64,000 nt of DNA, taken from contig JBLNBR010000008.1 of the NCBI GenBank assembly GCA_050260105.1, positions 2,099-66,098 of the forward strand, written 5' to 3'. The notes beneath the pieces were generated by a model. That model ran no database searches. It saw only the letters and a list, made by a program, of their open reading frames with translations, and was not told where the DNA came from. The stretch is from Ignavibacteriales bacterium. Lineage in GTDB: Bacteria; Bacillota; Sulfobacillia; JABLXB01. Of this stretch, positions 5,297 through 57,193 are shown piece after piece (within the stretch, counting starts at the first letter, position 1; the number at the start of each line of letters is the position of its first letter). The position numbers were made by a program, and so were the translations under genes.

Positions 5297-5592
5297 TCTC
5301 CGGAGGACATTATGTTGCCCGTCATCATCCTCCCTCGTAGAGTGGCGATTTACCCGAAAACCCCCTGACCTATTGCACGATTTTGGGTAACGTGTTATCT
5401 TATAGGAGGTCACTTTCCAGTAAACAACATCCACCTCAAGACATAGGGATATCCGGGAGACCGCGTCATAGCGCTAGCCGTTCCATGCGTAGCGCTTGTG
5501 GTGTTTGGGGTTCTCCCGATTTGACGTGTTCTGGATCGCGTGGCAAGTCATCGGGGGGCGCGGGTCAACAGTTGTCATCGAATTTGCGGGTC

Positions 5593-7341: not shown

Positions 7342-7361
7342 CGACAAAGGTGGATTGAGCG

Positions 7362-7853
7362 ATGGGCAAGAAGTTCCCCAGGTCTCTGTGGGGTTACAGG
7401 CCTTCCGCCGTCGACGAGCATCTCGGATCCATTGCCCGGGACGCCGAGGAGAAGGCCAGGCAGCTGCGTGAGGAAACCGAACGGGCCCTTGAAGCCAACC
7501 GGGGTCTCAAGGAACAGGTGGAAATCGTTCAGAAGGAGATAGAGGGCTACAAAGAAAAGGAGCGCGCGGTTGCGCAGGCCATAATAGCTGCTCAACTCCG
7601 GGCGAGCAGTATCGAGGAAGAGGCCAGGAAAGTGGTGGAGGAACAGAAGCAGCGCGTGATCGCCGAGATCGCCGCGAAGCGGGTTGAGATGAACAGGGTG
7701 CGTGCTGAATTGGAGCGGTTCCGCCAGGCGTTTTCGCAGATGCTGGCCGCGATCGACGAGTCTCTGAAATCGGCGCCGCCTGTGGATATCGGCGATGTCG
7801 AGGTCTCTCTGGAGAAGGATTCAGTGGCTGACCGGACGGGAGGGTTTTCGTGA
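7362..7853 (+). CDS. DivIVA-domain coiled-coil protein
   Basis: The N-terminus FPRSLWGYRPSAVDEHL fits the DivIVA N-terminal domain pattern (F…GY…VD..L), followed by a long charged coiled coil. Confidence 0.65.
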   Translation: MGKKFPRSLWGYRPSAVDEHLGSIARDAEEKARQLREETERALEANRGLKEQVEIVQKEIEGYKEKERAVAQAIIAAQLRASSIEEEARKVVEEQKQRVIAEIAAKRVEMNRVRAELERFRQAFSQMLAAIDESLKSAPPVDIGDVEVSLEKDSVADRTGGFS

Positions 7854-9055
7854 AGTCCGCTCTTCCGAGACGGATCCTTGGATACAGAATAGGTGTTGTG
7901 GACGCTCACATCGAGATGGCCGAGCGCGAGTCCGCGGCCCTTGTGTCGCGCGCCCGTGATGACCTTCGTTTTGCCCTCGACGAGCAGGCCGCGTTGACCG
8001 AGCGTTTGTCTGAAAGGCGCAATGAGCTCTCATTGTACGCCGGTCGGAGCCGGTTCTACGAGAAGGCTATGCAGAAGGCCCTCGCCACCGCCGACTACCT
8101 TGTGGAGACTGCGAAGTACAGGGCCGAAACCATGGTGGCGGAGGGCGAGGAGTACGCCGGGGAGCAAAGGCTGCGCCTCATAGAACTCGACAGGGAGATA
8201 GCGGGCGCCCGCCGGGAGATCGAGATGATGCGGCAGGGCGTTAAGCAACTGATGGAGTCCCGTTCCGCCGTAATGCAACACGCGCGATCCTCCAAAGTTG
8301 CCGGCCACATACTGGAAGCGTCCGGCAGAAACGCGCCTTTCACGGCCACCACGTCGAGCGGCTTCCTGGAAGTGGACGTGAGCATTCAGGCGGTCAGGGT
8401 TGTGTCCCAGGACGGAGAGGAGATAGGACGCGTCCGGAGCCTGGTTCTGGACAAAACGAAGGACAGGGTATGCGGCTATGAAATTGAGCCGCAAGGCCCC
8501 GAGTCTCCCCTGAAGTCTCCGGCGATAGTCCCGTCGAGCGCTGTGATCGCGGTGAAGCGCGACGCACTCCTCGTGCACAGCAGCTGGGTGAGAGAACTCA
8601 GGCGTGTTCCCGCCCCCGCCGAGATGGAATCGCAGGTGCCTTCCTCAGAGACGCGGTCGAACCCCGTGGAGCCGAGGATCGGGGTCGATCTGCTCGAAAG
8701 GATTCGCGCAACCGTTCCGTCCGTGTCGCCTGCCGCAGTGCCTGCAATCGCCGGCCTTGCCGGTGGAACCAGTTCACCGGCCGCATCAACCCAGGTTGTG
8801 GCGGCTGAACCGGCCCCGGCGCCCGAAAGCGAGGCGGTGTCTCAGATCGGCTCACGGCGCATGAAGTATCTGGTCGGCAGGATCTCCGGCACCGATATTC
8901 GTGATCCGGACGGCGCACTGATCGTGGCCAAAGGCGGCACCATCACGGCCGAGATCGTGGACCGGGCAAGGTCCGCGGGCAAACTCGCGGAGCTGATCGT
9001 GAACATGACAATCCCGGGCCTCAACCCCGATGGAGAGTCTACCAGCGACTCATAG
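7850..9055 (+). CDS. DivIVA-domain protein with extended C-terminal region (two beta-rich repeats plus a Pro/Ala/Ser linker)
   Basis: N-terminus RRILGYRIGVVDAHI is DivIVA-like, then coiled coil. The C-terminus has two related segments: VRVVSQDGEEIGRVRSLVLDK and YLVGRISGTDIRDPDGALIVAKGGTIT. Overlaps upstream gene by 4 nt. Confidence 0.6.
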   Translation: MKSALPRRILGYRIGVVDAHIEMAERESAALVSRARDDLRFALDEQAALTERLSERRNELSLYAGRSRFYEKAMQKALATADYLVETAKYRAETMVAEGEEYAGEQRLRLIELDREIAGARREIEMMRQGVKQLMESRSAVMQHARSSKVAGHILEASGRNAPFTATTSSGFLEVDVSIQAVRVVSQDGEEIGRVRSLVLDKTKDRVCGYEIEPQGPESPLKSPAIVPSSAVIAVKRDALLVHSSWVRELRRVPAPAEMESQVPSSETRSNPVEPRIGVDLLERIRATVPSVSPAAVPAIAGLAGGTSSPAASTQVVAAEPAPAPESEAVSQIGSRRMKYLVGRISGTDIRDPDGALIVAKGGTITAEIVDRARSAGKLAELIVNMTIPGLNPDGESTSDS

Positions 9056-9079
9056 GTCTGGCTTGTTGGAGAGGCTGAA

Positions 9080-10654
9080 ATGACCGGGGAACACACAGAT
9101 CTGAGCGCGCTGGCGCGTGAGGTGGCGGAGAGGACCAGGTTCCCGCGTGACTGCTACGAGGTGGCTGCCGTTCTCGAGTCGATGGCCTGGACAGACGCCC
9201 TCGCACTCGAACGCTTCGGATTCGAGGATGTGTTCGAGCTCGCCAGCGCAGTCTTCGGGATGATCCCCAGGATAACCGCGGAATCCGCCGCCCGCCCCGA
9301 TAGAACCCCGGTATGGTTGGTACTACTGGTCATGGTCAAGCAATTCCTCCGTGGGATCATGTTCGCGATGCCGATGGCGATTTCTATCATCGCCATGCTC
9401 ACGATAAGGTATTCGCTCTGGTCCTACCAGTACTTCTCCGTCGAGAACGCCACGGCCATCGCGATCGGCACGGCGATGAGTTTCGTCGCCACGGGAGGCT
9501 TCACGCAGGCGATAGCCAGGCGGGGCCTGATGTACATTTCGCAGAATGAATACGGCCTCGCCAGGAGACTCTCATTCAATATCGTGCTGATTGGTGTTGT
9601 CGCCACGCTTGTTCTCGGGGCAGTCATGTTCCTGCTCAACCTGGCGTTCGCCGTTTTCCCCTGGAGCATGGCGTGGTTCACCTTCATATACTACCTGTTT
9701 CTATCGGCGATCTGGCTGTCAATCACGATCCTGTACATGCTCCGCAGGGAAGTCCTGTTCACCCTGGTGATGGCGGCCGGTATCGGGCTGGTGGTCCTCC
9801 TGCACGAATTCCTGCGCCTTACGATCATCGTCTCACAGATACTTGCTCTCTCGGTAACCGCTGGGGTATCGCTATCCCTGGCCACATACCTGTTCCTCTC
9901 CGCGGAGAGGCGAAGCGAATCGGGTCTCGAGGCAGCTCCGCTCCCGCGAGCCTCGCTTGTCGTGTATACCAGCGTTCCGTATTTCGTCTACGGCGTGCTG
10001 TACTTCTCGTTTCTGTATCTCGACAGGATCATAAGCTGGTCGACGAACGACGTGTACATGCCATACGTCATATGGTTTCGCGGACAATACGAACTGGGGC
10101 TGGACTGGGCGATTCTCGCCATCATCATCCCCATGGGCGCGGTGGAAATGATACTCGAGCAGTTTGTGGGGAGCCTCCTGAAGTCCGAGAAGGCTACCTC
10201 CGGCGCCGAATCGCGGCAATTCGGCCGGATGTACGTGAAGACATACACCAGGCAGATGGCGCTTTACCTCGCGCTGTCCGCGCTGAGTGGATACCTTCTG
10301 CATTCGGCCATCCTGCACGTGGAAAACCTGAGGATGTTCGAGGTGTACGTCTCGGGTGACCGCGTTTCATGGATTGTCTTCAACTGGTCGCTGATCGCCT
10401 ATGTGCTGTTGGCGGCCGGCCTGCTCAACTCGCTGATGCTATTCTGTCTTTCGAGGCCGGAGATGGCGGTGCGGGCGATTTCGTCGGCAGTACTGGTGGA
10501 TTTCGTCGTGGGCTTCGTTTGCAGCCGGCTCCTGGGTTACTACTGGGCAGTAGCCGGTCTCGTCGTCGGAGCCGCTGTCTTCGCGGTTACGGGTTCGAGG
10601 CAGGTTTTCAGGGTGTTGCGCAATCTCGATTATTACTATTACGCGTCACTCTAG
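9080..10654 (+). CDS. Polytopic integral membrane protein (about 12 TM segments) with ~60-aa cytoplasmic N-domain; possible polysaccharide polymerase or exporter component
   Basis: Hydrophobic periodicity throughout. Long uninterrupted ORF inside the operon. No family signature recognised. Confidence 0.55.
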   Translation: MTGEHTDLSALAREVAERTRFPRDCYEVAAVLESMAWTDALALERFGFEDVFELASAVFGMIPRITAESAARPDRTPVWLVLLVMVKQFLRGIMFAMPMAISIIAMLTIRYSLWSYQYFSVENATAIAIGTAMSFVATGGFTQAIARRGLMYISQNEYGLARRLSFNIVLIGVVATLVLGAVMFLLNLAFAVFPWSMAWFTFIYYLFLSAIWLSITILYMLRREVLFTLVMAAGIGLVVLLHEFLRLTIIVSQILALSVTAGVSLSLATYLFLSAERRSESGLEAAPLPRASLVVYTSVPYFVYGVLYFSFLYLDRIISWSTNDVYMPYVIWFRGQYELGLDWAILAIIIPMGAVEMILEQFVGSLLKSEKATSGAESRQFGRMYVKTYTRQMALYLALSALSGYLLHSAILHVENLRMFEVYVSGDRVSWIVFNWSLIAYVLLAAGLLNSLMLFCLSRPEMAVRAISSAVLVDFVVGFVCSRLLGYYWAVAGLVVGAAVFAVTGSRQVFRVLRNLDYYYYASL

Positions 10655-10709
10655 CGGCCGTCCGGCCTGCCGGGCCGTCCGGCGTTGGCCGGGCGGTCTG
10701 TGATGGGGG

Positions 10710-12698
10710 ATGGACTTGTACAACAGCGTGACAATCGCTACGGCGCTGTTCCGGATGGGCCTGTCATTCACCGGCCTGTTCATGGTATTGCCAGCGTTGT
10801 TGTTCAGGAAGGAGCCGGGGGCGCCGGCGCTGGACTCTTTCTACGCCAATTTCGTGAAGATGGTGTTCTTCATCCAGGTGACAACATATGCGCTTGCCGC
10901 TGTCCGCCTGTATGAAGTAATCTCGCTCGTCACGGTCTTCCTTGTGGCGGGCCTGTGGCGGGTAAGGTCATCAATGACCCCGGAACAGGTTCCCCGCGTT
11001 CGATCCATGCTCACGGTCCGCGGCCTGGACCTGGCGGACAGGAGGGTCGGCCTGTCCCACCTGGCCGCTCAGTGCAGGTTGACCATGGCGGCCCATGTCC
11101 GGGGTGTGTGTGTGGCGATGCGCGATAGGCTGAACCTCTTCGACTCGCTTGCGCTGTTCGCCACGCTCGGATACGCTGCCTACCTGCGGTTCCTCGACTC
11201 GATCGTCAACGCGGCCCCCGCCATGTCCGACTCTTATGTGACGCTGGCATGGATGAAATACATCGAGCGCCGCCAACTGTTTCACGATGGGATTTACCCG
11301 CACGGGTTTCACATATGGCTGTCGGTCCTGCACAAGTTCTCCGCCATCGACGCCCTGTTCGTGCTCAAATACGCCGGACCGTTCAACTCCGTGTTGACAA
11401 CGCTGTCATGCTACTACTTCGTATCGAGGATGACGGAAAACCCCCTGGCCGGCGTATGTTCGGCGTTCGCATACGGCTGCCTGCCCTCTTTCATGCCCTA
11501 CGAGTTCCAGCGTCAGGCGGCCACCAACTCACAGGAGTTCGCGATGCTGTTCCTGCTGCCGGCCGTTGTGTTCGTCGTGAGGTACCTGAGGCAGGGATCG
11601 CCCCGGGATCTCGCGGCCGCCTTCTGCGCGATCGGCGTCACGGGGTTGACTCACCCCGTGGTGACGCTGTTCGCGGTTGCTGGAGCGTTTGCCGCCGTCT
11701 GCGCAAGCGTGTTTTCGCTTTCGACCGGTTTTCGCAGGCTCGTGCGGATGGCCGGCGCCGGCATCGGGGCGGGGGGCGTGGCGTGCGTCCCGCTGGCCGC
11801 CGGACTGGCGGCGGGCATACCCTTTCACGGTTCATCGGCCGAATTCGCAGTCGCTGAAGGGGTGGCCTCTATACCCGTTGTCCAGCGCCTGCACGCCGCA
11901 GCACTTGTTGCCGGTCTGGCGGGGTGCCTGCTGTGCGCCGTGCTGGCGAGATCACGTCAGTCGCGCGCTGGTTTTCTCTGTTGCGGCTTTCTTGTCTTGG
12001 GATCGGTGTTGGTTTACATGGCGCCCGCTTTCGGGGTCCAGAACCTTGCGCTCTCCGCACGGTCCGGCGAGGTGTATGCCCTGGGGTTGTGCGTGGCTCT
12101 CGGCGCAGTGATTTCCGCGGCGGTACCGCGGGGATCCCTCGGAAGGCGCTGGTTTGTGGTTGCCTGGGGGTGGCTCACTCGAGCGGGGGTCGCAGGGCTC
12201 GCTGCGGCGGTGTTGATGCTGTTCCCCCAGTCGCCCGCCCGTCCATACAAGATGCAGACGAACGAAAGTGCGGAACAGTACATTCGCATCCTGCTCACGG
12301 ACACCCCGACCGATTGGCTCATCGTTTCCGACTTCGAGGGCTATTCTTTGGTGCTGGGGCGGGGCTGGCACTTGATGACTGGGGATTTCGTGCGGCAGGT
12401 GGACCCGTCGGGTGAGAAGCTGGAGATCGTGCAGAACGGGGTGTCGTCGCCCCTCGAGATGTCGAGGATCTACCTGTTCTACGAGGAGAACCCGTACAAG
12501 CCTCCCATCGAGGAGGCCATTCCTGAATACGAACGCAAGGTGGTGGACCAGCGCCGCCTCGCGGAATGGATAGCGAAATACGAGGCTCATCACGGGCCGC
12601 TGAAGGTGTATCACAGGGGGCCGGCTCTGACGATCTATGTCATAGAGCGTTCACCGGATAAGCGTAAGGAATTCGAGAGGATATGGGGCGATGCGTAA
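10710..12698 (+). CDS. Large polytopic membrane protein, GT-C-like/YfhO-like putative glycosyltransferase or polymerase (paralog 1)
   Basis: Multi-TM N-terminal two-thirds plus a soluble C-domain. Shares blocks with the next gene (DSYVTLAWMKYIERRQLFHDGIYPHGFH; RQAATNSQEFAMLFLLP; LGRGWH). Confidence 0.6.
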   Translation: MDLYNSVTIATALFRMGLSFTGLFMVLPALLFRKEPGAPALDSFYANFVKMVFFIQVTTYALAAVRLYEVISLVTVFLVAGLWRVRSSMTPEQVPRVRSMLTVRGLDLADRRVGLSHLAAQCRLTMAAHVRGVCVAMRDRLNLFDSLALFATLGYAAYLRFLDSIVNAAPAMSDSYVTLAWMKYIERRQLFHDGIYPHGFHIWLSVLHKFSAIDALFVLKYAGPFNSVLTTLSCYYFVSRMTENPLAGVCSAFAYGCLPSFMPYEFQRQAATNSQEFAMLFLLPAVVFVVRYLRQGSPRDLAAAFCAIGVTGLTHPVVTLFAVAGAFAAVCASVFSLSTGFRRLVRMAGAGIGAGGVACVPLAAGLAAGIPFHGSSAEFAVAEGVASIPVVQRLHAAALVAGLAGCLLCAVLARSRQSRAGFLCCGFLVLGSVLVYMAPAFGVQNLALSARSGEVYALGLCVALGAVISAAVPRGSLGRRWFVVAWGWLTRAGVAGLAAAVLMLFPQSPARPYKMQTNESAEQYIRILLTDTPTDWLIVSDFEGYSLVLGRGWHLMTGDFVRQVDPSGEKLEIVQNGVSSPLEMSRIYLFYEENPYKPPIEEAIPEYERKVVDQRRLAEWIAKYEAHHGPLKVYHRGPALTIYVIERSPDKRKEFERIWGDA

Positions 12699-14856
12699 AC
12701 AGGCGCCTGATTCTGGCTCACAGCGGGGACTCACGACGGGGATGGGGTGTCTCACCACTCTCCTCATCCTGGCTGTCTTGAACGCCGCCCTCTATCTTCT
12801 GTTCAAAGCGCAGCCTGCCAGCGTGCAGCGCACGGCCCTGAATATGATTGCCAGCCTCATCAATGGGGCCAAGGTAGTCGTGTTTTTCTGCCTGATCTTC
12901 ATCTACCTTCCCTGGCGCACAATCGTGCTGCCTGCTGGTCAGCCATGGCTCGATAGACTATTTGCGAACCTGACCCTCTCGACGGCCGTCTTCACCGTCG
13001 TAGTACACGTCCTGGCCCTGCTCAGACTGTACGATCCCATTTCCATCTGGCTGTCCACTGCATTCCTATGTTTCTTCGCCCTGAGAACTGCAAGGGGGCG
13101 TCGAGCGGGGGTCCCGAACTCATCGCGCGGGAATCCGGACACTACGTTCGGCCAGTTCCTGGACATGATTGACCGTCGCACTGACCTGGTGCAGGCGGTG
13201 CTACTGCCACTTCTTCAGCGAGTCACGCGCATGGTGAGGGATTGGCTACGCACACTCACAAGGTTGGCCCTGTCTTGGGATGGACTCCTTTTCGTGTGTG
13301 CAATGGCTTACCCGACGTATCTCCGTATGCACCATGCTATTACCAAGGCGTACTACTCCTGCTCGGACGCTTACGTTCACCTGGCGTGGAGCAAATACTT
13401 GAGTTCTGGAGAGTTGTACCGCGACGGCATCTACCCTCACGGGATGCATGCGGTGCTCTCACTGCTAGATAGGATGGCCTTCGTCGACCCGTATTGGGTG
13501 TTCCGCTACGCAGGGGCCATGGTGGGAGTGCTGATTGTCCTTGCTGTGTTCTACGCGGTTTACCGCTTCACATCTGATTTGCCAGCTGCAGCGGTTGCTT
13601 CGTTTGTTTACGGGATCGAGTGTGGTCTGCCGGCATCGGCCTGGAGGCAGACAGCGGCCCTGCCGCAGGAATTCGCGATGCTATTCTTGCTCCCCGGGTT
13701 GGTGTTCCTAAATGACTATGTCGGCACCGACGACCGGCGGTACTTGTTGCTGTTCCTTGCGGCGTATTTCATGACCCTGGTCAGTCACCCGTTTATATCG
13801 TTTTACATGTTGATCGGGACGGCTTGCATACTACTGCCGGCGGTCATCGGCCGATCGATCGGCCTGCGCCAGGTGGGCTGGTTGGGTATTGGCGGCCTGC
13901 TCACGAGCATTGCAGGGACCCTGCCATACAGTGTGGGTCTCGTTTTCCATCAGAGACTCCATTCTGTCGAGTGGGCTCTCTCCACCCAGATACTCGAGTT
14001 TTCGTCTGGTCCCACTTCCGTGGCTGACACCCTCAGGAGCATCCCCAAACCCGAGATGACAAGCGTGGTTTGTGCCGCAGCCCTCGTGCTTGCCGGAGGG
14101 TTATCGGTTCTCCACCGCCGGGCTTCCGGGCGACGGCCGGCGGCAGGATTGGGCCTCACGTGCCTTGTCCTTTTCGCTATGTGTGAGGCTCGAGTTCTAG
14201 GGCTGCCACAGTTGATTGAGCCTCAACGTACCCGAATGGTGTTTTCGCTTGTGGCTGCAACCATACTCGGCCAAGTGGCTTCGGCCTTGCGGTACGCCAT
14301 CCGAGGAAATCTGAGACGCGTTGTGGCGATACTCGCCATTGTGGCCCTGGGAGTCTACTTCCACCCCAAACCCTACGTCAGTGAAATGTTGGAGTATTCG
14401 GTTGCAGCGGAGACATACTTGCGGCTCAGAGATGAGTTCCCGCCGCTGAGCTGGACCCTCGTGGCGCCCGTGGAACAGTACCAACAGGTGTTGGGGCGAG
14501 GATGGCACTACGAGCTTATCCGATTTGTCACCGAATTCAATGTGGAGAGGGTTTCGAGAAAGAGTTTCCGTTTTCCGATACCTACCCCGCACATCTTTGT
14601 TCTTGTCGAGAAAATTCCGCTGGGAACGAAGGTCCCTGTAACCCCAGAGATGGCACTGAAGCCGTTGCCGAGTAGCGGATCTGAATTGGGTACTGGCTAC
14701 TACCGCAACGCTTCCCTGCGGAGCATTGTCGAGGCGCGCGCCATGGCCATTTGTGAGGCATACATGTCAAGCCATAATGACGCCACCATCTACTACGAAG
14801 ACGACACCATCAGGGTGTATCACTTTGTGAATGCCGTTACCAAGACATTGCAGTAG
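12691..14856 (+). CDS. Large polytopic membrane protein, GT-C-like/YfhO-like (paralog 2, tandem duplicate of the upstream gene)
   Basis: Matching blocks DAYVHLAWSKYLSSGELYRDGIYPHGMH, RQTAALPQEFAMLFLLP and LGRGWH. Overlaps paralog 1 by 8 nt. Confidence 0.6.
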   Translation: MRKQAPDSGSQRGLTTGMGCLTTLLILAVLNAALYLLFKAQPASVQRTALNMIASLINGAKVVVFFCLIFIYLPWRTIVLPAGQPWLDRLFANLTLSTAVFTVVVHVLALLRLYDPISIWLSTAFLCFFALRTARGRRAGVPNSSRGNPDTTFGQFLDMIDRRTDLVQAVLLPLLQRVTRMVRDWLRTLTRLALSWDGLLFVCAMAYPTYLRMHHAITKAYYSCSDAYVHLAWSKYLSSGELYRDGIYPHGMHAVLSLLDRMAFVDPYWVFRYAGAMVGVLIVLAVFYAVYRFTSDLPAAAVASFVYGIECGLPASAWRQTAALPQEFAMLFLLPGLVFLNDYVGTDDRRYLLLFLAAYFMTLVSHPFISFYMLIGTACILLPAVIGRSIGLRQVGWLGIGGLLTSIAGTLPYSVGLVFHQRLHSVEWALSTQILEFSSGPTSVADTLRSIPKPEMTSVVCAAALVLAGGLSVLHRRASGRRPAAGLGLTCLVLFAMCEARVLGLPQLIEPQRTRMVFSLVAATILGQVASALRYAIRGNLRRVVAILAIVALGVYFHPKPYVSEMLEYSVAAETYLRLRDEFPPLSWTLVAPVEQYQQVLGRGWHYELIRFVTEFNVERVSRKSFRFPIPTPHIFVLVEKIPLGTKVPVTPEMALKPLPSSGSELGTGYYRNASLRSIVEARAMAICEAYMSSHNDATIYYEDDTIRVYHFVNAVTKTLQ

Positions 14857-14904
14857 AGCGCATGCATGTCCACAATGAGGTAGCGCTGGAAAGGGGCGGT
14901 TGAC

Positions 14905-15732
14905 ATGAGAAGGATCCTCGTGATGCCCCAGTACAACGAAGAGCGCACGGTAATTGGTGTGCTCGAGTCAGCCTCGAGATTCGTCGACAGGATCATAATT
15001 GTAAATGATGGTTCGACCGATTCATCCCAGACCCTCATCGAAGAGTGGATGGACAGCAGGCCGGGAGTGGCCCTGATCAACCTGGCTGCAAACCAGGGAA
15101 TGTCGGGAGCGCTCCTCGCGGGATTCTGCGAAGTCTATCGCCTGTACATTGAACGCATGCTGGGTGACGACGACATCATCATCAATATCGACGCGGACGG
15201 CCAGCACAAGGCCGAGGAGATACCACGGATGGTCGAGGCACTGCATGCTAAGAAGGCAGACGTGCTGTTGGCCAGGCGTGACCTGTCCGGCTATCCCTTA
15301 TTCAAGCAGGTTGGAAACAAGGGTTTATCGGCCTTCGCCTCGTTCCTTTCGGGAGTCCGCTATTTTGATGTTGAATGTGGTTTTCGTTTCATGAGGGTGA
15401 AGGTCATCCCGGGCCTTCTGAAGTACTTCACGGGCCGGAGATACGGCTGTGCCCAGGAAATCGGGATGATAACCGCCTTGCTGGGCTTCGCCATTGACAA
15501 CACTGAGCCCGCCGAGATAGCCTACTACCGCGCAGGGGCGCGAGTGACCGACGGCCTCGTCAACATCGGCATGGGGTTCCTGGCTTACGCGAGGGTGAAG
15601 CTGGGCCTTGCGAACGATCTGGAACGCCTTGTCGGGCGGGTGTTAGGCCACGCCAAGGTCTGCGTGTCACCTCTTCTGGACGCGGGTCGCACTCTGTCGG
15701 CAAGAGCTAACGCAGGCCCCCTGGGGAGTTGA
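14905..15732 (+). CDS. Family 2 glycosyltransferase (DPM1-like polyprenyl-phosphate sugar transferase type)
   Basis: MPQYNEERTV…IIIVNDGSTDSS is the classic GT2 N-terminus, with the DAD motif in NIDADGQH. Confidence 0.75.
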   Translation: MRRILVMPQYNEERTVIGVLESASRFVDRIIIVNDGSTDSSQTLIEEWMDSRPGVALINLAANQGMSGALLAGFCEVYRLYIERMLGDDDIIINIDADGQHKAEEIPRMVEALHAKKADVLLARRDLSGYPLFKQVGNKGLSAFASFLSGVRYFDVECGFRFMRVKVIPGLLKYFTGRRYGCAQEIGMITALLGFAIDNTEPAEIAYYRAGARVTDGLVNIGMGFLAYARVKLGLANDLERLVGRVLGHAKVCVSPLLDAGRTLSARANAGPLGS

Positions 15733-15739
15733 GAACACC

Positions 15740-16924
15740 ATGGTGAAGCGCGGTGATTGGGCCGGGTCGGTGTTTCTTACCGACGCCCAACAACGCAAGA
15801 CCCTGGCGGCAATTCGATCCCTCGCGCGCAGGCGAATCGCGCCACACGCCGGAGAAGTGACTGTCCTTGCGACATCGCTTTTCTCGCGTTACTGTGGTGG
15901 ACGCCTGGTGTATCCATCGCCGATCCTGCACCCCTCGGAGTGGGTGGACACCGTAGAGAAGTACGTGAGAACACACGCGATAGAATGCCTGTTCCCAATG
16001 GACGATGATAGCGTGCTGTTGGCTTCGGCCCGCAGGAAGGCATTCCAATCCCTGTGCGCCCTGCCGTTGCCCCCACACGAGATACTCGTTGAGGGTATGG
16101 ACAAGGCGAAGACAGTTGCCGCTGCGCAAGGCGCGGGGCTGAGATGTCCGGTTAGTATGCCGATTGCTGCCGCATGCCAGGCCAAGGAATGGTGCGGAGG
16201 GTATCCAGCCCTGGTCAGGCCGCGAAGGAGCTCTGGCGCCAGGGGACTCCGGGTTGTCCGAGGACCGCAGGATCTGGCCAATACAGTTGCAGCGCTGGCA
16301 AAGGAATACCCGGATGGACTTCTCATCCAGGAATACCTGGCTCAAGGGCCGAAGTTCGACGTGTGCGTTATGTTGGACTGGTCGGGCAAGCCGCTCGCTT
16401 CATTCGTGCAGAGGGAGATCAGATGTTTTCCTATTCCTCACGGTCCCAGCACTGTTCAAGAGAGCGTGCACAGGCCGGATCTCGTTGACCTCGCGCTTAA
16501 GCTGCTAAAACGCATGGGTTGGACGGGCCTTGCCGAAGTGGAATTCATGGAGGACCCAAGGGACGGAATGCCGGTGTTCATGGAGGTCAACCCGAGATTC
16601 TGGGCCTCTCTTCACCTGGCGGTGGAATGTGGAGTGGACTTTCCGTATCTCTTGTATCTGCTGGCCACAGGCAGGGATGTTCCGAACCGGCACGAATACC
16701 CTGCTGGGTTGAAATGCCGGTGGCTGCTGCCCGGAGACGTACTACACTTCATTTCGAACCCTCAAAGGCTGAGGATGGAGCCGGGCTTCTTCGAATTCTT
16801 CCGCAGGGACGTTATGGATGACATCATGTCCCTGTCTGATCCGGGGCCCACACTGGGATTCATATTGGCTGCGGCAAGATATGCGTTCGATCCTGTGATG
16901 TGGCGGTTCATGTTCCGGCGGTGA
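15740..16924 (+). CDS. ATP-grasp family ligase
   Basis: PALVRPRRSSGARGLRVV (glycine-rich ATP-grasp loop) and AEVEFMED…MEVNPRF (E[IV]NPR motif). Confidence 0.65.
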   Translation: MVKRGDWAGSVFLTDAQQRKTLAAIRSLARRRIAPHAGEVTVLATSLFSRYCGGRLVYPSPILHPSEWVDTVEKYVRTHAIECLFPMDDDSVLLASARRKAFQSLCALPLPPHEILVEGMDKAKTVAAAQGAGLRCPVSMPIAAACQAKEWCGGYPALVRPRRSSGARGLRVVRGPQDLANTVAALAKEYPDGLLIQEYLAQGPKFDVCVMLDWSGKPLASFVQREIRCFPIPHGPSTVQESVHRPDLVDLALKLLKRMGWTGLAEVEFMEDPRDGMPVFMEVNPRFWASLHLAVECGVDFPYLLYLLATGRDVPNRHEYPAGLKCRWLLPGDVLHFISNPQRLRMEPGFFEFFRRDVMDDIMSLSDPGPTLGFILAAARYAFDPVMWRFMFRR

Positions 16925-17835
16925 CGACCGTCGGTGGGCCATGGCGCCGGGCGGGCAGTCCCGGGCGTTATTCTGGAGGCGCTGTCTCATTGCTCAACGC
17001 ACTCACGTTCGACATCGAAGAATGGTATCACGGCAACCTGTTCCGTTTCGCGGAACCGCAGATGGCGCGGTTCCCGAGTCGTGTTGCGCCTCCGACAATG
17101 GACATACTCGACATGCTGAGGGCATCTGGTACCAGGGCCACCTTCTTCTTCCTTGGGGTCGTGGCCAGGGATCATCCCGAGCTCGTGAGGCGCGCAGCCT
17201 CTGAAGGCCACGAAGTCGCCTGCCACGGCTGGGAGCACCGTCTCCTGTACACCCTTTCCGATGATGAAGTCAAGCAGGACCTTCTCAGGGCCAAGGGCCT
17301 CCTGGAAGACATCTCCGGCACTCGTGTAAGGGGGTTCAGGGCGCCTTCCTGGTCGATATCGCGCCGCACTACACACCTGTTGAGAGTGCTGTGCGAATGC
17401 GGGTTCGAGTACGATTCCAGCGCTTTCCCAAGAGGGACGCCGCTTTTCGGCGTTGACGGGGTTTCACCGGGGCCCACGCGGATTTCGGTTGGAGATGGTC
17501 CCGGACGGTGGAGCATTATTGAGTCTCCAGCTGCCGCCTACGACACCGGCATCGGGCTAGGGATACCGTTTGGTGGGGGATTGTTCTTGCGCATATGGCC
17601 GTACCTCCTCACCCGGTCCTGGATTCGTCGCCTCAATGGCAGGGGAGAGCCGGCCGTCATCTATGTTCACCCGTGGGAGTTGGATATGGGCCTCCCCGTC
17701 TGTAGTCCGGTGTGGCGCCGCATGGCCAGGGACTTCAACCTGCGTTCGACAAGGCCCAAGTTGGAGGCTATTCTGAGGGATTTCTCCCTGGGGACAGTTC
17801 TTGAGATGCTTCGAGAGAGAGGCCTGTATGAATAG
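16900..17835 (+). CDS. Polysaccharide deacetylase (CE4), resembling the PEP-CTERM-locus/DUF3473 subfamily
   Basis: LTFDIEEWYHG (TFDVEDWF-type motif) and HGWEHR. Overlaps upstream gene. Confidence 0.7.
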   Translation: MAVHVPAVTTVGGPWRRAGSPGRYSGGAVSLLNALTFDIEEWYHGNLFRFAEPQMARFPSRVAPPTMDILDMLRASGTRATFFFLGVVARDHPELVRRAASEGHEVACHGWEHRLLYTLSDDEVKQDLLRAKGLLEDISGTRVRGFRAPSWSISRRTTHLLRVLCECGFEYDSSAFPRGTPLFGVDGVSPGPTRISVGDGPGRWSIIESPAAAYDTGIGLGIPFGGGLFLRIWPYLLTRSWIRRLNGRGEPAVIYVHPWELDMGLPVCSPVWRRMARDFNLRSTRPKLEAILRDFSLGTVLEMLRERGLYE

Positions 17836-19396
17836 CACGCGGCGGTTGTCACCGGCTCTCATCGTTGCCGGGGCGAACATCATCCTCGCCGTGGTCGCGT
17901 TCGTCAGGGAGGCTGTCCTGGGGGCGACGATCGGGACAGAGTACTCGGCAGACGCATTCGCCCTATCCCTTTACCTGGCGGACGCGCAGGCGAATACCAT
18001 CTTCTACAGCTCGATCGTGTTCGCGGCCATCCCGGTTCTGTCAGGACATGTTGTCGATCGTCGCAGAGACAGTCTGTTGCGCACTCTTAACTCGGCTACC
18101 GGGACGGGCGTGGCCGTCAGCGCCGCTCTGTGGACAGTGAACGCATCAGCCGCCAGGCTGCTTATCAGCACCCTGGGGGCCGGCTTTCCCGCTCCAGAGA
18201 GGAGCCTGGCAACCAGCATGTTCCTCCTATTGCTCCCCCTGATTCCCTGCTACATACTTTCCGCTGTATTCATTTCGGGTTTGCAGGCATGCTCCGAGTT
18301 CGGGGTGCCCGCTTTCGGCCCCGTTGTTCTCAACGTCTTGTTCATTGCCGGCCTGGGGGCAACGATGAGCCACCTCGGGCCGGCTGGCCTGTCGGTTTCC
18401 TACAGCGTTGGCGCCGTCGCAATGCTCTTGCTCCAGGCCGTGACGCTACATGTGAAAGGGCTTCCCATCAGACCATCATTTGACATTTGCGACCCGGGAC
18501 TGAGGCAAATGGTAACCGCCCTTGTCCCGATTGCCCTTGTACAGGTCTTCAACCAGCCAACCTATCTTGTAGAGCGCATACTTGCGGGGAGGTTCGGCGA
18601 GGGTGGCGTCGCCAGCCTGACATATGCTTTCAAGGTGTCGCAGATCCCTGTCTGGGTATTCGTGGCTGCTCTGGGCGCTGTGGCGTTTCCCGCTATGTCA
18701 CGTTTCGCCCACCTCAACGACGTGGATGGAATGTCTGGCGTACTGGAAAAGGCCGCTGAACTGACCATGGCCATCACACTCCCATCGGCTGTTGTGTTCC
18801 GGGTCTTCGCCCGAGAGGTGACTGCGGCGATATTCATGAGGGGTGCATTCGGGGCGGCGTCGCTCGCTTCGACGTCCCAGGTGCTCCGGGGTTATGCGCT
18901 GGCGCCCGTATGTCACGGGTTGCTATACCTGTTGCTCAGACTGTGCTACGCCTGCCGCGACACAGCGACACCCATCATAGCAACTCTGGCCGGTTCCGCG
19001 GTTACGGTGCTAGCGGATCTCATCTTGACACCCAGTCTGGGTCTTGAGGCGCTGGGCTTCGGATCCGCCATCGGGTTGACGGTATCCGCAGCATTCATCA
19101 CCTGGAGGGTCCGTACGAGGCTGGCACGTGAGGCGCCGCGGCGCCTCGCCTTGGCCGCCGGCAGTATTCTTGTATGCTGCATCATCATGTTGATGGTGAT
19201 GTTCGCAGTCGAAGGGTGTCTGCCGGTGCACGTTGAAGCAATCACTGAGGAACAGAGGTTGTTCCGGACGGGGGCATTGTTCTCCGCAGGATTCGCGTCG
19301 TATGCGACGGCATACCTCTTTCTCGGCTCGGGAGCGTTACGATTTCGCGGAGTTGTGGCATCGAATCGCGCAGATCATGGCGCCCCCAGGGAGTGA
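17828..19396 (+). CDS. MOP-superfamily flippase, MurJ/MviN-like (PelG-like role possible)
   Basis: N-terminus ALIVAGANIILAVVAFVREAVLGATIGTEYSADAFALSLYL…IPVL matches the MurJ N-terminal pattern. About 14 TM segments, about 520 aa. Confidence 0.7.
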   Translation: MNSTRRLSPALIVAGANIILAVVAFVREAVLGATIGTEYSADAFALSLYLADAQANTIFYSSIVFAAIPVLSGHVVDRRRDSLLRTLNSATGTGVAVSAALWTVNASAARLLISTLGAGFPAPERSLATSMFLLLLPLIPCYILSAVFISGLQACSEFGVPAFGPVVLNVLFIAGLGATMSHLGPAGLSVSYSVGAVAMLLLQAVTLHVKGLPIRPSFDICDPGLRQMVTALVPIALVQVFNQPTYLVERILAGRFGEGGVASLTYAFKVSQIPVWVFVAALGAVAFPAMSRFAHLNDVDGMSGVLEKAAELTMAITLPSAVVFRVFAREVTAAIFMRGAFGAASLASTSQVLRGYALAPVCHGLLYLLLRLCYACRDTATPIIATLAGSAVTVLADLILTPSLGLEALGFGSAIGLTVSAAFITWRVRTRLAREAPRRLALAAGSILVCCIIMLMVMFAVEGCLPVHVEAITEEQRLFRTGALFSAGFASYATAYLFLGSGALRFRGVVASNRADHGAPRE

Positions 19397-21258
19397 TCTC
19401 GGTGATCATCCATCTGGCTGGAGCGGTCGCTGCAACTCTGATAACAGTGCTGCTCGTGCGTGACCTGCGATTGAGGTCTCTCAACAGGCGCCTCCTGGAG
19501 AGAGAGTCACTGTGGCGCCGGATACTGTCGGCGGTTGGGCCGGGTCTCACCTTTGACGAATCGGCTGGCAACTTGCTCGCACTGATTTCATCCCTCGTGG
19601 ACGCTCCGGGCTACTACCTATACATGAGCGGAACTGAGTCGAACGCGCTTTCGCTCAGAGTGATCAGAAGTGAACCCGAAACGATGAGGGCTGGGATATA
19701 CTACTCCAGCCTGGTGGAGGAGTATCCGGCATACGATGCCCCGCTCAGTCAAGATCCCCGGAACCAGCCCGGCGAGGTGGGATTCGTGGGCGCCGGAGAC
19801 CTTGCCCTGCTGGCTATTCCCATCAGGCGGGACGGTTCCACTATCGCCGCAATACATGTGGGCCCGGTCCGGCCCCACGACATACCTGCCGCCCGTTTGA
19901 ACCTCCTCAAGGACCTGCACCCTGCGCTGACTCTCGCCGTCACCACGATATGGGAGAATGACATCATCAGGCGGAAATCCGATGATCTCGCCGGCCAACT
20001 GGAGGCCGTATCGATAGCCGCAAGGGGGGCCTATGAACCGTCGGGGTTCGTCGAGACCATGATGTCACTCGGCGCCCGGCTCACCGGCAGCGACTCATGG
20101 CTGCTGGCTGTCTTCGATGAATACTGCCCCAGCCGTTTCAAACCGGTCTTCAGGGGAATCTCCGAGACTACTGCGCGCGAAGTCATCAGCCACCTGTCTT
20201 CGGCGCGTGCAACGGGCCTTTTCCCACGGCAGATCGAATTCATCCACGATGCCGGCGCACTCAGAGACTCCCTGGGGACGCTCCTGCGATGCGGTCGTTC
20301 TCAAGGGGTGATTTGGGCCCCCCTGGTGCACGACGACAGAGTAGCCGGCGCACTTATCCTCTTTGTCGATGCTAGACGGCCTCCTGACATCCACAAGATT
20401 CAGGCCCTCGGCGCACTTACGACTTGGCTGGTGGGCGCACTCGACAGCCTTCGTACCCAAGAGCAGGTGACGCGCGCCTATGTGGAAAGCCTCAAGACGC
20501 TGGCCACGTTCATAGATGAACAGGAAATCTACAGCAGGGGTCATTCGGCGAGAGTAGCCAAGCTGGCTCGCGAGATCGCGGGGGAACTGGATCTCGCTCC
20601 CCGGTACCTGGAGGCAGTGGAGCTGGCCGGCTACCTGCATGATATCGGGATGTGCGCGCTCAAAGGCGAACTCGTTTTTGGAGCGGCGAAGTTCACTGAC
20701 GTGGAGTACGAGGAGATGAAGGCGCACACCACCATTGGGGCTGCGCTCGTGGGGCCGGTCAACGACTTCGCCCCGCTGGCCTCCCTAATCAAGCACCACC
20801 ATGAGAGATATGATGGCGGCGGATACCCCGATGGACTGAAGGGCGAGATGATTCCCATTGGGGCAAGGATCGTCGCGGTGGCGGATGTATTCAATGCCAA
20901 GATTACGAACCGGAGCTACAGGCGGGCGCTCAGTTTCGGGAAGGCGGTTGAGGACATGGTGAAGACGGAGGGAACGATGCTTGACCCGAAGTGTGTCAAG
21001 GCGCTTCTGTCCTCGATCCGGCGGAAGCAGAACAGAGCCGAACGGCGGGGCAAGACCCTCGAGCCCTGTTGGGAGATGCTACAGTGTCCTCAGTACCTTC
21101 GTGACGCCTGTCCAGCGGGGCCCAGGGACTGCCACTGTTGGACAGTGCCGGGTGTGCGCTGTGACCTGCACGGTAGCCGTTGCGAGAGCTGTCCTGTCTA
21201 TACCGAGTACGAATTGAGGACAGGCGCTGCGCCGGGTGGTGTGGTCAATGGCCGCTAG
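19393..21258 (+). CDS. Membrane-anchored GAF-like sensor plus HD-GYP c-di-GMP phosphodiesterase with C-terminal 9-Cys tail
   Basis: HD-GYP motifs YLHDIGM and HHERYDGGGYPDGL. N-terminal TM segment. C-terminus CWEMLQCPQYLRDACPAGPRDCHCWTVPGVRCDLHGSRCESCPVY. Confidence 0.8.
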   Translation: MISVIIHLAGAVAATLITVLLVRDLRLRSLNRRLLERESLWRRILSAVGPGLTFDESAGNLLALISSLVDAPGYYLYMSGTESNALSLRVIRSEPETMRAGIYYSSLVEEYPAYDAPLSQDPRNQPGEVGFVGAGDLALLAIPIRRDGSTIAAIHVGPVRPHDIPAARLNLLKDLHPALTLAVTTIWENDIIRRKSDDLAGQLEAVSIAARGAYEPSGFVETMMSLGARLTGSDSWLLAVFDEYCPSRFKPVFRGISETTAREVISHLSSARATGLFPRQIEFIHDAGALRDSLGTLLRCGRSQGVIWAPLVHDDRVAGALILFVDARRPPDIHKIQALGALTTWLVGALDSLRTQEQVTRAYVESLKTLATFIDEQEIYSRGHSARVAKLAREIAGELDLAPRYLEAVELAGYLHDIGMCALKGELVFGAAKFTDVEYEEMKAHTTIGAALVGPVNDFAPLASLIKHHHERYDGGGYPDGLKGEMIPIGARIVAVADVFNAKITNRSYRRALSFGKAVEDMVKTEGTMLDPKCVKALLSSIRRKQNRAERRGKTLEPCWEMLQCPQYLRDACPAGPRDCHCWTVPGVRCDLHGSRCESCPVYTEYELRTGAAPGGVVNGR

Positions 21259-22057
21259 AGACGCGCCGGCCCGCGCCCGCTTCAGGGCTGCTCACAACTA
21301 CGTGGTCTACTATGGCGATGGGCGCCTCGATGACTTGGCTCAATTCGACGTTGCGATTCTCGAAAGCTCGGCCTATGCGGCAGGCGAAGTCGAGGACCTC
21401 TCGCAGCGCGGGTGCCTGCCGATCAGCTATCTCAGCGTTCTGGAATCCAGCGATCATCTGCCGTATCACCAGTTCGCCGCTTGCCGCGATTTCCTCACGC
21501 TGTCTGGTTCGAGGGTCCTGATACCCGAGTTTGACACTTGGGTAATGGATATTCGCGAGCCGCACTGGCGCGAGGTTCTTCTGACCGCTGCTGGCGACAT
21601 GTTGGAGAGGAAGCGCTTCTCCGGCTTGTTCCTTGACACTGTTAGCAGGGTGGAAGACCCGTCGTTTCCGGCGTCGCTTTCCCTGGACCTGGCCGCCGGC
21701 GTCCTCGAATTTGTCAGCACACTTCGAAGGAACTATCCCGGCGCCGTCCTCATCCAGAACCTTGGGCTTGAAAGGCTCGTTCGTCACACGGCCCCGTTGC
21801 TTGACGGCGTGTGCTGGGAAGGGTTCGGGAGTCTTCCCTGCCATGACTCCCGCGAGTGGCGCTGGATGCTCAATAAGATACGGGAGTTGAAGCAGCTACG
21901 TGAACAATACGGCATCAGGATCATGCTGTTGGGTCATGCTGCTTTGGGAAGGGAAGTAGAGGCAATCTTGAGTCGGAGCGGCCCCGATGAACTAATGTCC
22001 TGCTGGGGATTGTCCTATTCCAGGGCGGTTCAACAGGAGATGAACGACAGGGGATGA
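21236..22057 (+). CDS. GH114-like (COG2342/PelA-hydrolase-like) putative endo-alpha-1,4-polygalactosaminidase-type glycoside hydrolase
   Basis: TIM-barrel-like alternation. Blocks FDVAILE, ISYLSVLES (YxS[IV]GE-like) and GLFLDTV. Family assignment is from memory of GH114 motifs, at moderate certainty. Confidence 0.45.
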   Translation: MVWSMAARDAPARARFRAAHNYVVYYGDGRLDDLAQFDVAILESSAYAAGEVEDLSQRGCLPISYLSVLESSDHLPYHQFAACRDFLTLSGSRVLIPEFDTWVMDIREPHWREVLLTAAGDMLERKRFSGLFLDTVSRVEDPSFPASLSLDLAAGVLEFVSTLRRNYPGAVLIQNLGLERLVRHTAPLLDGVCWEGFGSLPCHDSREWRWMLNKIRELKQLREQYGIRIMLLGHAALGREVEAILSRSGPDELMSCWGLSYSRAVQQEMNDRG

Positions 22058-23139
22058 GGATCGCCTATCTTGTTCTCGACGATCTTAGCCGAATGCCCGG
22101 CGTCTGGAAGAAGGTGGTTGGCCAAGTTGAGCAATGGCGCCTTCTCGGGCACGACCCTGCCGTCTTCGCGTGCGAACCAAGGAGGGCGACTCACTCTGAC
22201 TTGATCCACGACTCTCGGGCTGCAGCCTACCCCGACTACGCTGCGGCCTACATCCTACGCAGTCTGACAGCACTGAGAGTCCGGCGTGAATTGAGCGATT
22301 TCCGGCCCGACATCGTCTACATGCGATTCGGGGTGTTCACTCCATTTGTCAGCGGCACTCTGGAAGTGGCTCGCGCCCCAGTCATCATCGAGGTTAACAG
22401 CGATGATGTTGCTGAGTATGATCGGTACGGACCGATGATAGGCGGGTACAATCGGCTTACCCGGGGACTGCTACTGTCAAGGGCTGCGGGGTTCGTCAGC
22501 GTCACCGACGAACTGCGTGCTCGCTTGGGCCGTCCGGCGGTACTTCACGTGGTCGTTCCCAACGGAGTCGCATGGAGAGAGTTCGCACGGCTACCCGCGC
22601 CAGGGAACGATAGGCCAAACATCGTCTTCGTGGGGTCTTCCGATCAACCGTGGCAGGGTGTGGACAAGATAACATATCTTGCCAAGCGATGTCCCGAGTT
22701 CACGTTCCATGTTGTCGGTCCTAAGAACGTGGAGGTCCTACCGAATGTCGTTGTACACGGTTGGAAACTAGGTAAGGACCTTCAGCAGATATACGCGGTG
22801 AGTGATGCTGCGATTGGAACACTCGCTCTCCACAGGAAGGGCATGAATGAAGCGAGTCCCCTCAAGGTCCGAGAGTATTTGGCATACGGAATTCCCAGCA
22901 TTATTGGCTACCACGATCCTGATCTCGAAGGTCATATTCCGGGAATACTCAAGCTACCTAACCACGAGCACAATGTCGCGAATGCCGTATCGGAAATACG
23001 ACAATTCATCGTGGCACACGTTGGCAAGAGAGTTGGTGACGGAGTCAAGCTACTGATCGATTCTGGTAGGAAAGAGGCAAAAAGGGTGGGTTTCTTCCAA
23101 ATGGTCCTTGATCAGCATAGACGGCAAGCGCCACTATGA
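22054..23139 (+). CDS. Glycosyltransferase (GT4-like, GT-B fold)
   Basis: C-domain KVREYLAYGIPSIIGY (E-x7-E-like region). 361 aa. Last gene of the co-directional run. Confidence 0.55.
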   Translation: MRIAYLVLDDLSRMPGVWKKVVGQVEQWRLLGHDPAVFACEPRRATHSDLIHDSRAAAYPDYAAAYILRSLTALRVRRELSDFRPDIVYMRFGVFTPFVSGTLEVARAPVIIEVNSDDVAEYDRYGPMIGGYNRLTRGLLLSRAAGFVSVTDELRARLGRPAVLHVVVPNGVAWREFARLPAPGNDRPNIVFVGSSDQPWQGVDKITYLAKRCPEFTFHVVGPKNVEVLPNVVVHGWKLGKDLQQIYAVSDAAIGTLALHRKGMNEASPLKVREYLAYGIPSIIGYHDPDLEGHIPGILKLPNHEHNVANAVSEIRQFIVAHVGKRVGDGVKLLIDSGRKEAKRVGFFQMVLDQHRRQAPL

Positions 23140-56972: not shown

Positions 56973-57124
56973 GTCATGTCTGCTGTATTGCTTACTTGCG
57001 GTCAACCCCAGATGGTGACCCCGTGGCGCCGCAAAGTCCAGCCTGTTCAGTGGTATTGGTTTCGCTACATCAAGAGACTTGTTGTGAACTGGACAGAATA
57101 CTATCTGGCGAACTGGCAGGCTTA

Positions 57125-57152
57125 TTGACAATCTCGCTGCAAATACTATATT
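57125..57152 (+). promoter_or_regulatory. Sigma-70-type promoter TTGACA-N16-TATATT upstream of hspR-dnaK-grpE
   Basis: Read directly. RBS GGAGGG lies 8 nt before the hspR GTG. Confidence 0.55.
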
Positions 57153-57193
57153 TGTTGGTAGAAGGGATCCTGCGGCAAAGGAGGGATGTAACG

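Follow-up and report, generated by a model that had tools for sequence, protein, structure and literature searches.

What role can a cysteine-rich tail play at the end of a predicted HD-GYP phosphodiesterase that is encoded among genes for polysaccharide synthesis? This question is raised by a gene at positions 19393..21258 (forward strand) of a 64,000-nucleotide stretch of contig JBLNBR010000008.1 from GenBank assembly GCA_050260105.1; the whole stretch is referred to below as the window. The HD-GYP proteins are the less understood class of phosphodiesterases acting on cyclic diguanylate (c-di-GMP), with few established input signals, and the control of biofilm polysaccharides by c-di-GMP in monoderm bacteria is poorly mapped. 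Based on the comparison of the gene with its orthologs, relatives, and neighbors, we propose, with a probability of about 0.45, that it encodes a membrane-tethered HD-GYP phosphodiesterase lowering c-di-GMP locally at a PelF-type exopolysaccharide machine, with GAF-like domains and a metal-organized cysteine-rich domain of the two-CW family as its inputs.

The Cysteine-Rich Tail and Its Relation to the Two-CW Domain

The C-terminal domain (residues 556-609, positions 21058..21219), delimited by ortholog conservation, hhalign comparison, and structure modeling, contains eight cysteines within 42 residues (559, 565, 573, 580, 582, 590, 597, and 600) and two histidines (581 and 593), and only four further cysteines occur in the approximately 579 residues outside the tail. 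An earlier note on this DNA gave the number of histidines correctly and counted one cysteine too many, nine. The pattern reads L-x-P-C559-W-E-M-x2-C565-P-x6-C573-P-A-x5-C580-x-C582-W-x6-C590-x2-H593-G-x2-C597-x2-C600-x-V-x-T-E, with the cysteine spacing C-x5-C-x7-C-x6-C-x-C-x7-C-x6-C-x2-C (5-7-6-1-7-6-2). All seven full-length homologs analyzed, which come from independent assemblies and range in identity from 83% down to 31%, carry this tail. Invariant among them are L556, P558, C559-W-E-M, C565-P, C573-P, D579, and C582-W in the N-terminal part of the domain, and G594, C597, C600, V602, T604-E605, and R609 in its C-terminal part.

A search of 1.84 billion representative proteins with a profile built from the seven ortholog tails retrieved 300 representative clusters at E ≤ 1e-3, of which 85 also passed E ≤ 1e-10. 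Residue conservation was counted over 155 aligned domain instances. C559, C573, and C582 are present in all of them, C600 in 153, W583 in 152, and C597 in 149, with histidine at this position in two others; C590 and P574 are retained in 140 instances each, P566 in 130, W560 and G594 in 128 each, and H593 in 108. One further cysteine falls within positions 563-565, and in 82 of the 155 instances there is another at position 570; the one at position 580 belongs to the lineage of the window protein (2/155) and is also seen in the orthologs P0002-P0004. The total is seven to nine cysteines in 142 instances, while the extra cysteine shifts its position, and we take this steadiness to mean that the number of ligands is constrained. 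The framework of the family thus consists of seven core cysteines, an eighth at a lineage-dependent position, and the His593-Gly594 pair.

In the AlphaFold2 model of the full-length protein, built on 92 family members (mean predicted local distance difference test score, pLDDT, 91.9; predicted template modeling score, pTM, 0.74), residues 552-610 form a compact unit composed of loops and four short helices (pLDDT of about 96). As the tail is in frame, conserved in the seven orthologs and the 300 clusters, and confidently modeled, its origin by a frameshift, which the earlier note had named as a possible refutation, or by a chance cysteine-rich read-through is refuted, and the tail can be regarded as a genuine conserved cysteine-rich domain.

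Homology identifies the tail as a variant of the two-CW domain (NCBIfam NF045718) with a short loop, even though its score does not reach the curated cut-off of that family (35 bits). The seven tails were aligned by hhalign to sixteen long-loop two-CW sequences over 55 columns with all cysteines in register (probability 99.0%, E = 3.5e-18), and intermediate sequences are matched by both the tail profile and NF045718. The NF045718 model gives a match of any kind in four of the seven ortholog tails, in 24 of the 51 non-HD-GYP proteins that were retrieved with the tail profile (E down to 8e-27), and in nine of ten small proteins checked singly (E from 7e-3 to 8e-9), one of these matches being above the cut-off. 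The two C-W motifs are C559-W560 and C582-W583, standing in a framework of C565, C573, C590, C597, and C600 that ends with C-x2-C; the elements common to the tail and NF045718 are C-W-E ... C-P ... C-P-A ... C-W ... C ... C-x2-C. Between its fifth and sixth cysteines, the tail has a loop of six residues, against 14-22 in the long-loop type, and, unlike that type, it has the HD-GYP-specific H593-G594 pair and a T-E-[YF]-x-x-R end. The earlier note proposed a search of the tail against Pfam and CDD; direct scans with Pfam and NCBIfam yielded sub-threshold matches only, and the two-CW homology emerged from profile comparison.

Several other assignments were considered and rejected. The same note called the tail typical of a Zn-ribbon or Fe-S/redox-sensing module; it is neither a zinc ribbon nor a ferredoxin-type motif. 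A zinc ribbon is taken here as two cysteine knuckles (CxxC or CPxC) on β-hairpins forming one Cys4 site; residues 552-610 contain no strands or β-hairpins in the models and a single CxxC (C597-C600), and Foldseek returned no match. The ferredoxin-type [4Fe-4S] reading fails because a scan at E ≤ 1 gave no hit to any Fer4 family and the spacing is not CxxCxxCxxxCP; C-P pairs are present in another pattern. The Pfam match to DUF2769 is below the threshold (E = 0.04), this lead could not be strengthened, and the literature mentioning DUF2769 states nothing of its function. A PDB sequence search with the profile of the seven tails produced no matches at E ≤ 10, and neither did Foldseek when PDB and BFVD were searched with the model of the tail alone; since Foldseek performs poorly on domains of approximately 60 residues, a new fold is not proven by this result.

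A cytoplasmic module of approximately 50 residues with seven or eight conserved cysteines and almost no hydrophobic core very likely binds metal. From the many conserved thiols and the near absence of a hydrophobic core, we infer that the tail is built around the bound metal, most simply with two tetrahedral sites or with one polynuclear thiolate or Fe-S cluster. A role of the tail as a redox or metal sensor is plausible.

Other Proteins Containing the Domain

The partner domains of two-CW were identified by Pfam and NCBIfam scans. In MerR/HspR-type regulators, the domain is located directly C-terminal to the helix-turn-helix (HTH), and one of these proteins has the order receiver-MerR-two-CW. 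In methyl-accepting chemotaxis proteins, the C-terminus carries the domain twice in tandem; one such protein, P0261, possesses both the CZB zinc-binding domain and two-CW. HD-GYP-two-CW-STAS proteins and proteins with the histidine-kinase ATPase domain are also among the hosts, together with many stand-alone or tandem two-CW proteins of 70-170 amino acids (aa). A word-index search with the tail alignment found 22 proteins, mostly annotated as "hypothetical." A scan of contigs with the generic motif HHE[RH]xDGxGY yielded 80 ordinary HD-GYP loci, none of them with a two-CW tail.

Such a range of hosts is what would be expected of a signal-transduction module serving as an accessory or input domain; it supports, and does not prove, a sensing role. 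The suggestion made earlier, that the tail serves as a regulatory or sensory module, agrees with its occurrence in MerR/HspR regulators, chemoreceptors, receiver proteins, and STAS proteins, and based on the same occurrences we would interpret two-CW as a metal-centered switch or a docking element.

Domain Architecture and Predicted Catalytic Competence

The open reading frame (ORF) begins with one of two GTG codons, at 19393 (621 aa) or 19402 (618 aa), either of which is possible. The first shares four nucleotides (GTGA) with the stop codon of the preceding murJ-type gene, an overlap that is equal in the ortholog locus L001. The second is the start of the NCBI copy MGE5483749.1 (618 aa), located 11 nucleotides past a GGGAG Shine-Dalgarno-like motif; this copy, also listed as P0001, is identical to the window protein and is annotated as "HD domain-containing phosphohydrolase" only.

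A single N-terminal transmembrane (TM) helix (residues 4-22, positions 19402..19458; Kyte-Doolittle maximum 2.5) is the sole hydrophobic segment of the protein, and the orthologs also have a TM helix. An Arg-rich stretch comes next, and by the positive-inside rule everything after the helix is predicted to lie in the cytoplasm. In the model, residues 2-47 form one long N-terminal helix, followed by the first GAF-like domain (residues ~54-160, positions 19552..19872), which has an α/β fold and weak Pfam matches to GAF_2 (24.4 bits, threshold 28.6) and GAF_3. A long helix (residues 166-214) leads to the second GAF-like domain (residues ~216-325, positions 20038..20367), recognized by its modeled secondary structure and by tandem-GAF fold matches, and a long signaling helix (residues 333-375) connects it to the HD-GYP catalytic domain (residues 373-546, or 384-546 in the model; positions 20509..21030). 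The two-CW domain follows, and the last 11 residues (611-621, positions 21223..21255) are a non-conserved extension, disordered in the model (pLDDT 35-52). Foldseek with the full-length model against PDB retrieved the HD-GYP structures 4MCW, 9RBZ, and 4R8Z first, and then tandem-GAF proteins, including PDE2A (1mc0, E = 9e-8), CyaB2 (1ykd), 3ibj, PDE6, and phytochromes. Thus, of the N-terminal membrane and GAF-like sensor described in the earlier note, one anchor helix and two cytoplasmic GAF-like domains can be retained, and no extracytoplasmic sensor domain is present.

The catalytic part is, on alignment and profile evidence, an ordinary member of the HD-GYP family, and its earlier description as a canonical core holds. 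The Pfam model HD_5 (PF13487) matches residues 373-533 with 115.8 bits versus the gathering cut-off of 27.2 (E = 2.3e-33). The catalytic motif HHERYDGGGYPDGL is present and contains the GYP triad, G477-Y478-P479. In alignments with 5z7c, 4mcw, and 4r8z, all ligands of the binuclear metal site are found: H384, H416, D417, H445, H469, H470, and D498. Y380 stands where PmGH has the glutamate of its third metal, so the site should be binuclear, like that of PA4781; the glutamate is a feature of a subtype and does not define the family. The window protein is predicted to be a catalytically competent HD-GYP phosphodiesterase.

Canonical and Degenerate Members of the Family

Among the best 150 representatives listed, approximately 90 share the full architecture, with lengths of about 560-680 aa. 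They constitute a sizeable unannotated family that joins HD-GYP, a domain with seven or eight cysteines, and a PelF-type operon without a recognizable PelD. The HD-GYP domain is canonical (H-HD-H-HHH-D/E) in approximately 40% of this family, including the window protein and all of its closer orthologs. Approximately 50% of the members are degenerate, with Y384, S416-N417, and Q498; they keep H445, H469-H470-E471, D474, GYP, and the two-CW tail. A second CxxC motif (C570-x2-C573) occurs in 52 of 55 degenerate members versus 12 of 37 canonical ones; the family-wide counts are not weighted by phylogeny, and this correlation may reflect shared ancestry. The split into canonical and degenerate members within one operon context represents a natural experiment on the change from phosphodiesterase to receptor.

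Operon Context and a GH114-Like Candidate Partner

The gene belongs to a tightly packed run of genes on the forward strand (5383..23139, identified by Pfam and NCBIfam scans), as had been proposed when it was placed inside a polysaccharide operon, and this placement is conserved in orthologs. The first gene of the run encodes PelF (5383-7341; NCBIfam equivalog NF038011, 146.1 bits versus the cut-off of 100). Downstream of it are genes for a DivIVA-like protein (7362-7853), a PRC-barrel protein (7850-9055), and a PelG-like protein (9080-10654), the last with a sub-threshold Pfam PelG match (24.6 bits versus 29) and no NCBIfam match; it is unusual for an exopolysaccharide operon to carry DivIVA-like and PRC-barrel genes, which here separate pelF from the pelG-like gene. 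Two large paralogous proteins of 662 aa (10710-12698) and 721 aa (12691-14856) have essentially no family assignment, the former showing weak matches to DUF6541 and PMT_2 only; both paralogs are also present in the L001 and L083 clusters and are core components of the polysaccharide system. The run continues with a family 2 glycosyltransferase (GT2, 14905-15732), an ATP-grasp protein (15740-16924), a polysaccharide deacetylase with DUF3473 (16900-17835; Pfam Polysacc_deac_1, 80.4 bits), for which the best NCBIfam match, below its cut-off, is the XrtA-system deacetylase, and a MurJ-type flippase (17801-19396; Pfam MurJ, 1.8e-59). The HD-GYP-two-CW gene is followed by a gene for a GH114-like TIM-barrel protein (21236-22057) and one for a family 4 glycosyltransferase (GT4, 22054-23139).

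The block of ATP-grasp, deacetylase, MurJ, and HD-GYP-two-CW genes recurs at L001, where the ortholog has 51% identity, at L002 (33%), and at L083, which carries a member of the degenerate subfamily. The GH114-like gene, whose start overlaps the 3' end of the HD-GYP gene by 23 nucleotides, is also found downstream in L001 (56% identity) and L002 (36%). Its product has a sub-threshold Pfam GH114 match (25.3 bits versus 27, E = 1e-05), no signal peptide, and no TM segment. In three independent representatives (P0210, P0234, and P0238), the GH114 domain is fused C-terminally to a degenerate HD-GYP domain with two-CW, and in our view these fusions speak for physically associated partners and place the GH114-like domain in the cytoplasm. 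Thus the GH114-like gene is a candidate functional partner of the HD-GYP-two-CW gene. No PelE-type TPR protein was matched in the operon ORFs scanned.

Just downstream of the exopolysaccharide cluster, the window contains two DHDPS-family genes (24495-25409 and 25419-26330) and a class-V aminotransferase gene (26398-27570), all on the forward strand. The L001 cluster likewise precedes one DHDPS gene and an aminotransferase gene, and these genes may be linked to precursor supply.

Proposed Mechanism and Alternative Explanations

In the mechanism that we propose, the HD-GYP-two-CW protein would be tethered to the membrane and dedicated to the PelF-type exopolysaccharide machine. Its HD-GYP domain would remove c-di-GMP locally at the synthase complex and thereby control the polymer output. 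The inputs would be the ligand or ligands of the GAF-like domains and the metal occupancy or thiol oxidation of the two-CW site, and both the neighboring HD-GYP domain and the GH114-like partner would receive the state of the latter. Both the substrate and the direction of regulation are what we infer here.

Several observations weigh against this proposal. Among the approximately 40 window ORFs scanned, there is no match to PelD/GGDEF, diguanylate cyclase, EAL, or PilZ, and the Rfam scan of the whole window detected no c-di-GMP riboswitch. The tail itself scores 10.9-11.2 bits with NF045718 (E = 0.38-0.45). The literature search for the two-CW domain retrieved no paper, and hence no metal, redox, or enzyme measurement. 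The best PDB sequence match is an HD-GYP protein specific for 3'3'-cGAMP, which makes the assignment of c-di-GMP as the substrate tentative. Finally, the tail is kept in members without the catalytic metal ligands, which points to a role beyond the gating of hydrolysis.

The last observation is readily accommodated if two-CW is a purely structural, zinc-stabilized docking or dimerization module without any sensing function, for instance one docking on the GH114-like enzyme or other parts of the machine, and regulation proceeds via the GAF domains only. The domain directly precedes the fused GH114 or STAS domain in the fusion proteins, and the C597-to-His replacements in two instances are of a kind typical of zinc sites. 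The tail modeled alone has a pLDDT of 85 versus about 96 within the full-length protein, which in terms of the models hints at packing on the HD-GYP domain. However, two-CW also occurs alone in the proteins of 70-170 aa, in tandem at the chemoreceptor C-termini, and after the HTH of MerR/HspR regulators, the usual place of effector-sensing regions; thus an input module fits better than a specific docking site, and we consider the purely structural role doubtful. Another reading, prompted by the degenerate half of the family, is that the protein acts mainly as a c-di-GMP receptor, or "trigger" enzyme, that replaces PelD: the nucleotide occupancy of its HD-GYP site, and not bulk hydrolysis, would set the activity of the PelF/PelG-like synthase or of the GH114-like protein, with two-CW and GYP as output surfaces. 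This is compatible with a membrane-tethered phosphodiesterase as proposed above. PelF is found above the cut-off along with a PelG-like gene, yet there is no PelD-like GAF-GGDEF protein among the ORFs scanned, and the degenerate members keep GYP, H469-H470-E471, the tail, and the operon context. A GAF protein anchored in the membrane and bearing a degenerate nucleotide-binding domain is also what PelD is (PMC7112168), and the concept of a trigger phosphodiesterase exists for EAL proteins (mentioned in PMC5052742). On the other hand, the catalytic site is complete in the window protein and its closest orthologs, so that hydrolysis would be expected for the former, and PelD of Gram-positive bacteria escapes sequence-based detection (PMC7112168), so that one of the unassigned ORFs might be PelD. 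We regard the receptor role as unlikely for the window protein.

The enzyme could also degrade another nucleotide, such as 3'3'-cGAMP or pGpG, instead of c-di-GMP. The best match among solved structures is V-cGAP3 (5z7c, E = 1.4e-31), ahead of PmGH (2.7e-22), and tyrosine replaces the third-metal glutamate of PmGH in both V-cGAP3 and the window protein. Against this, the substrate of HD-GYP domains is not predictable from sequence similarity, no CD-NTase or cGAMP-related gene was found among the ORFs scanned, and Pel-type systems are classically under c-di-GMP control (PMC7112168). We consider such a substrate very unlikely, and c-di-GMP is retained in our proposal of a local phosphodiesterase at the PelF-type machine.

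A broader and distinctly unlikely extension of this proposal can be formulated. The TM-GAF-GAF-HD-GYP-two-CW protein might be the PelD-replacing regulatory subunit of a PelF-type machine of Bacillota, in which two-CW, as a previously unrecognized metal-cluster fold (Fe-S or polynuclear Zn-thiolate), would sense redox or metal state and, together with the GYP surface, control a cytoplasmic GH114-like enzyme. The catalytically dead members would then be pure cyclic-di-GMP receptors, and the sensor fold would be a general input for MerR/HspR regulators, chemoreceptors, and STAS proteins.

The enzyme class and sensor-linked c-di-GMP turnover are already familiar; concrete and testable leads come from the two-CW domain, from the division into catalytic and degenerate members, and from the coupling to GH114. 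In the literature searched, we found no description of a TM, tandem GAF, HD-GYP, and two-CW protein in a PelF-type operon without a recognizable PelD and coupled to a GH114-like gene, and a search for HD-GYP with a cysteine-rich domain or iron-sulfur cluster returned nothing on the two-CW tail. If two-CW indeed is a redox or metal switch, it would provide a direct molecular link from the redox or metal status to matrix production, and a function would be assigned to a domain that occurs in hundreds of proteins (regulators, chemoreceptors, and small proteins).

Other Genes of the Window and the Host

The NCBI label of the metagenome-assembled genome (MAG) is "Ignavibacteriales bacterium." The window, with a GC content of approximately 60%, encodes DivIVA (the gene at 7362-7853) and a LiaF-like protein (34195-35175, reverse strand); one ortholog of the HD-GYP-two-CW gene comes from a Bacillota MAG, and a Coat_F spore-coat gene is located next to L083. 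Together these signs suggest a Bacillota-like monoderm host, and the contig may be mis-binned.

At the beginning of the window, there are genes for a molybdopterin oxidoreductase of the formate dehydrogenase type that bears a ferredoxin-like domain at its N-terminus (63-2411, forward strand), a MobA-FdhD fusion protein (2408-3808, forward), and a FocA/NirC-family formate/nitrite transporter (3907-4788, reverse), which are consistent with an anaerobic lifestyle. Toward the other end, a Vsr mismatch endonuclease fused to a C-5 cytosine DNA methylase (54386-56023, forward) and an overlapping DUF4928 gene (55992-56972, forward) may form a module similar to restriction-modification systems. A MerR/HspR-like regulator gene (56996-57535) is located directly upstream of dnaK (57580-59559) and grpE (59556-60287), all on the forward strand; this regulator has no two-CW domain, and other HspR-like MerR regulators have it fused. 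A tRNA gene (61125-61199, forward) adjoins a gene for a tyrosine recombinase of the phage integrase type (61276-62781, reverse), and the GC content drops to 0.54 in the final 2 kb of the window. The region of the tRNA and integrase genes resembles a junction left by the integration of a mobile element.

Comparison with Known Systems

The solved HD-GYP proteins PmGH (4MCW), PA4781 (4R8Z), DvhD (9RBZ), and V-cGAP3 (5Z7C) have in common with the window protein the catalytic fold, the H, HD, H, HH, D, and GYP motifs, and a sensor module N-terminal to the catalytic domain. The window protein differs from them by its membrane anchor, tandem GAF-like module, and C-terminal two-CW domain; V-cGAP3 resembles it in having tyrosine at the position of the third-metal glutamate of PmGH. 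The top fold matches outside the HD-GYP proteins, the mammalian PDE2/5/6 phosphodiesterases and the cyclase CyaB2, show the same order of two GAF domains, long helices, and a nucleotide-processing catalytic domain. The catalytic domain of the tandem-GAF phosphodiesterases belongs to class I, whereas that of the window protein is HD-GYP, and its GAF-like domains score below the Pfam thresholds.

For the tail, a parallel is offered by the CZB domain, a Zn-thiolate regulatory module of chemoreceptors and of the cyclase DgcZ. Like the tail, which very likely binds metal, CZB is a small accessory domain attached to chemoreceptors and enzymes of c-di-GMP metabolism. CZB typically occupies the chemoreceptor C-terminus and folds as a four-helix bundle, its site being of the 3His/1Cys type. 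The sequences of CZB and two-CW are unrelated, and the latter has seven or eight cysteines and no fold match.

Within the operon, PelD is comparable to the window protein: both combine a membrane anchor, a GAF or GAF-like domain, and a cyclic-di-GMP-related domain in a PelF/PelG-type cluster, and PelD is catalytically degenerate, as is half of the HD-GYP-two-CW family. PelD of Pseudomonas aeruginosa has four TM helices. The window protein, unlike PelD, has one TM helix, is predicted to be catalytically active, and bears the additional two-CW domain, and the nucleotide domain of PelD is GGDEF, non-homologous to HD-GYP. PelA is periplasmic, unlike the GH114-like domain encoded next to the HD-GYP-two-CW gene, which is implied to be cytoplasmic.

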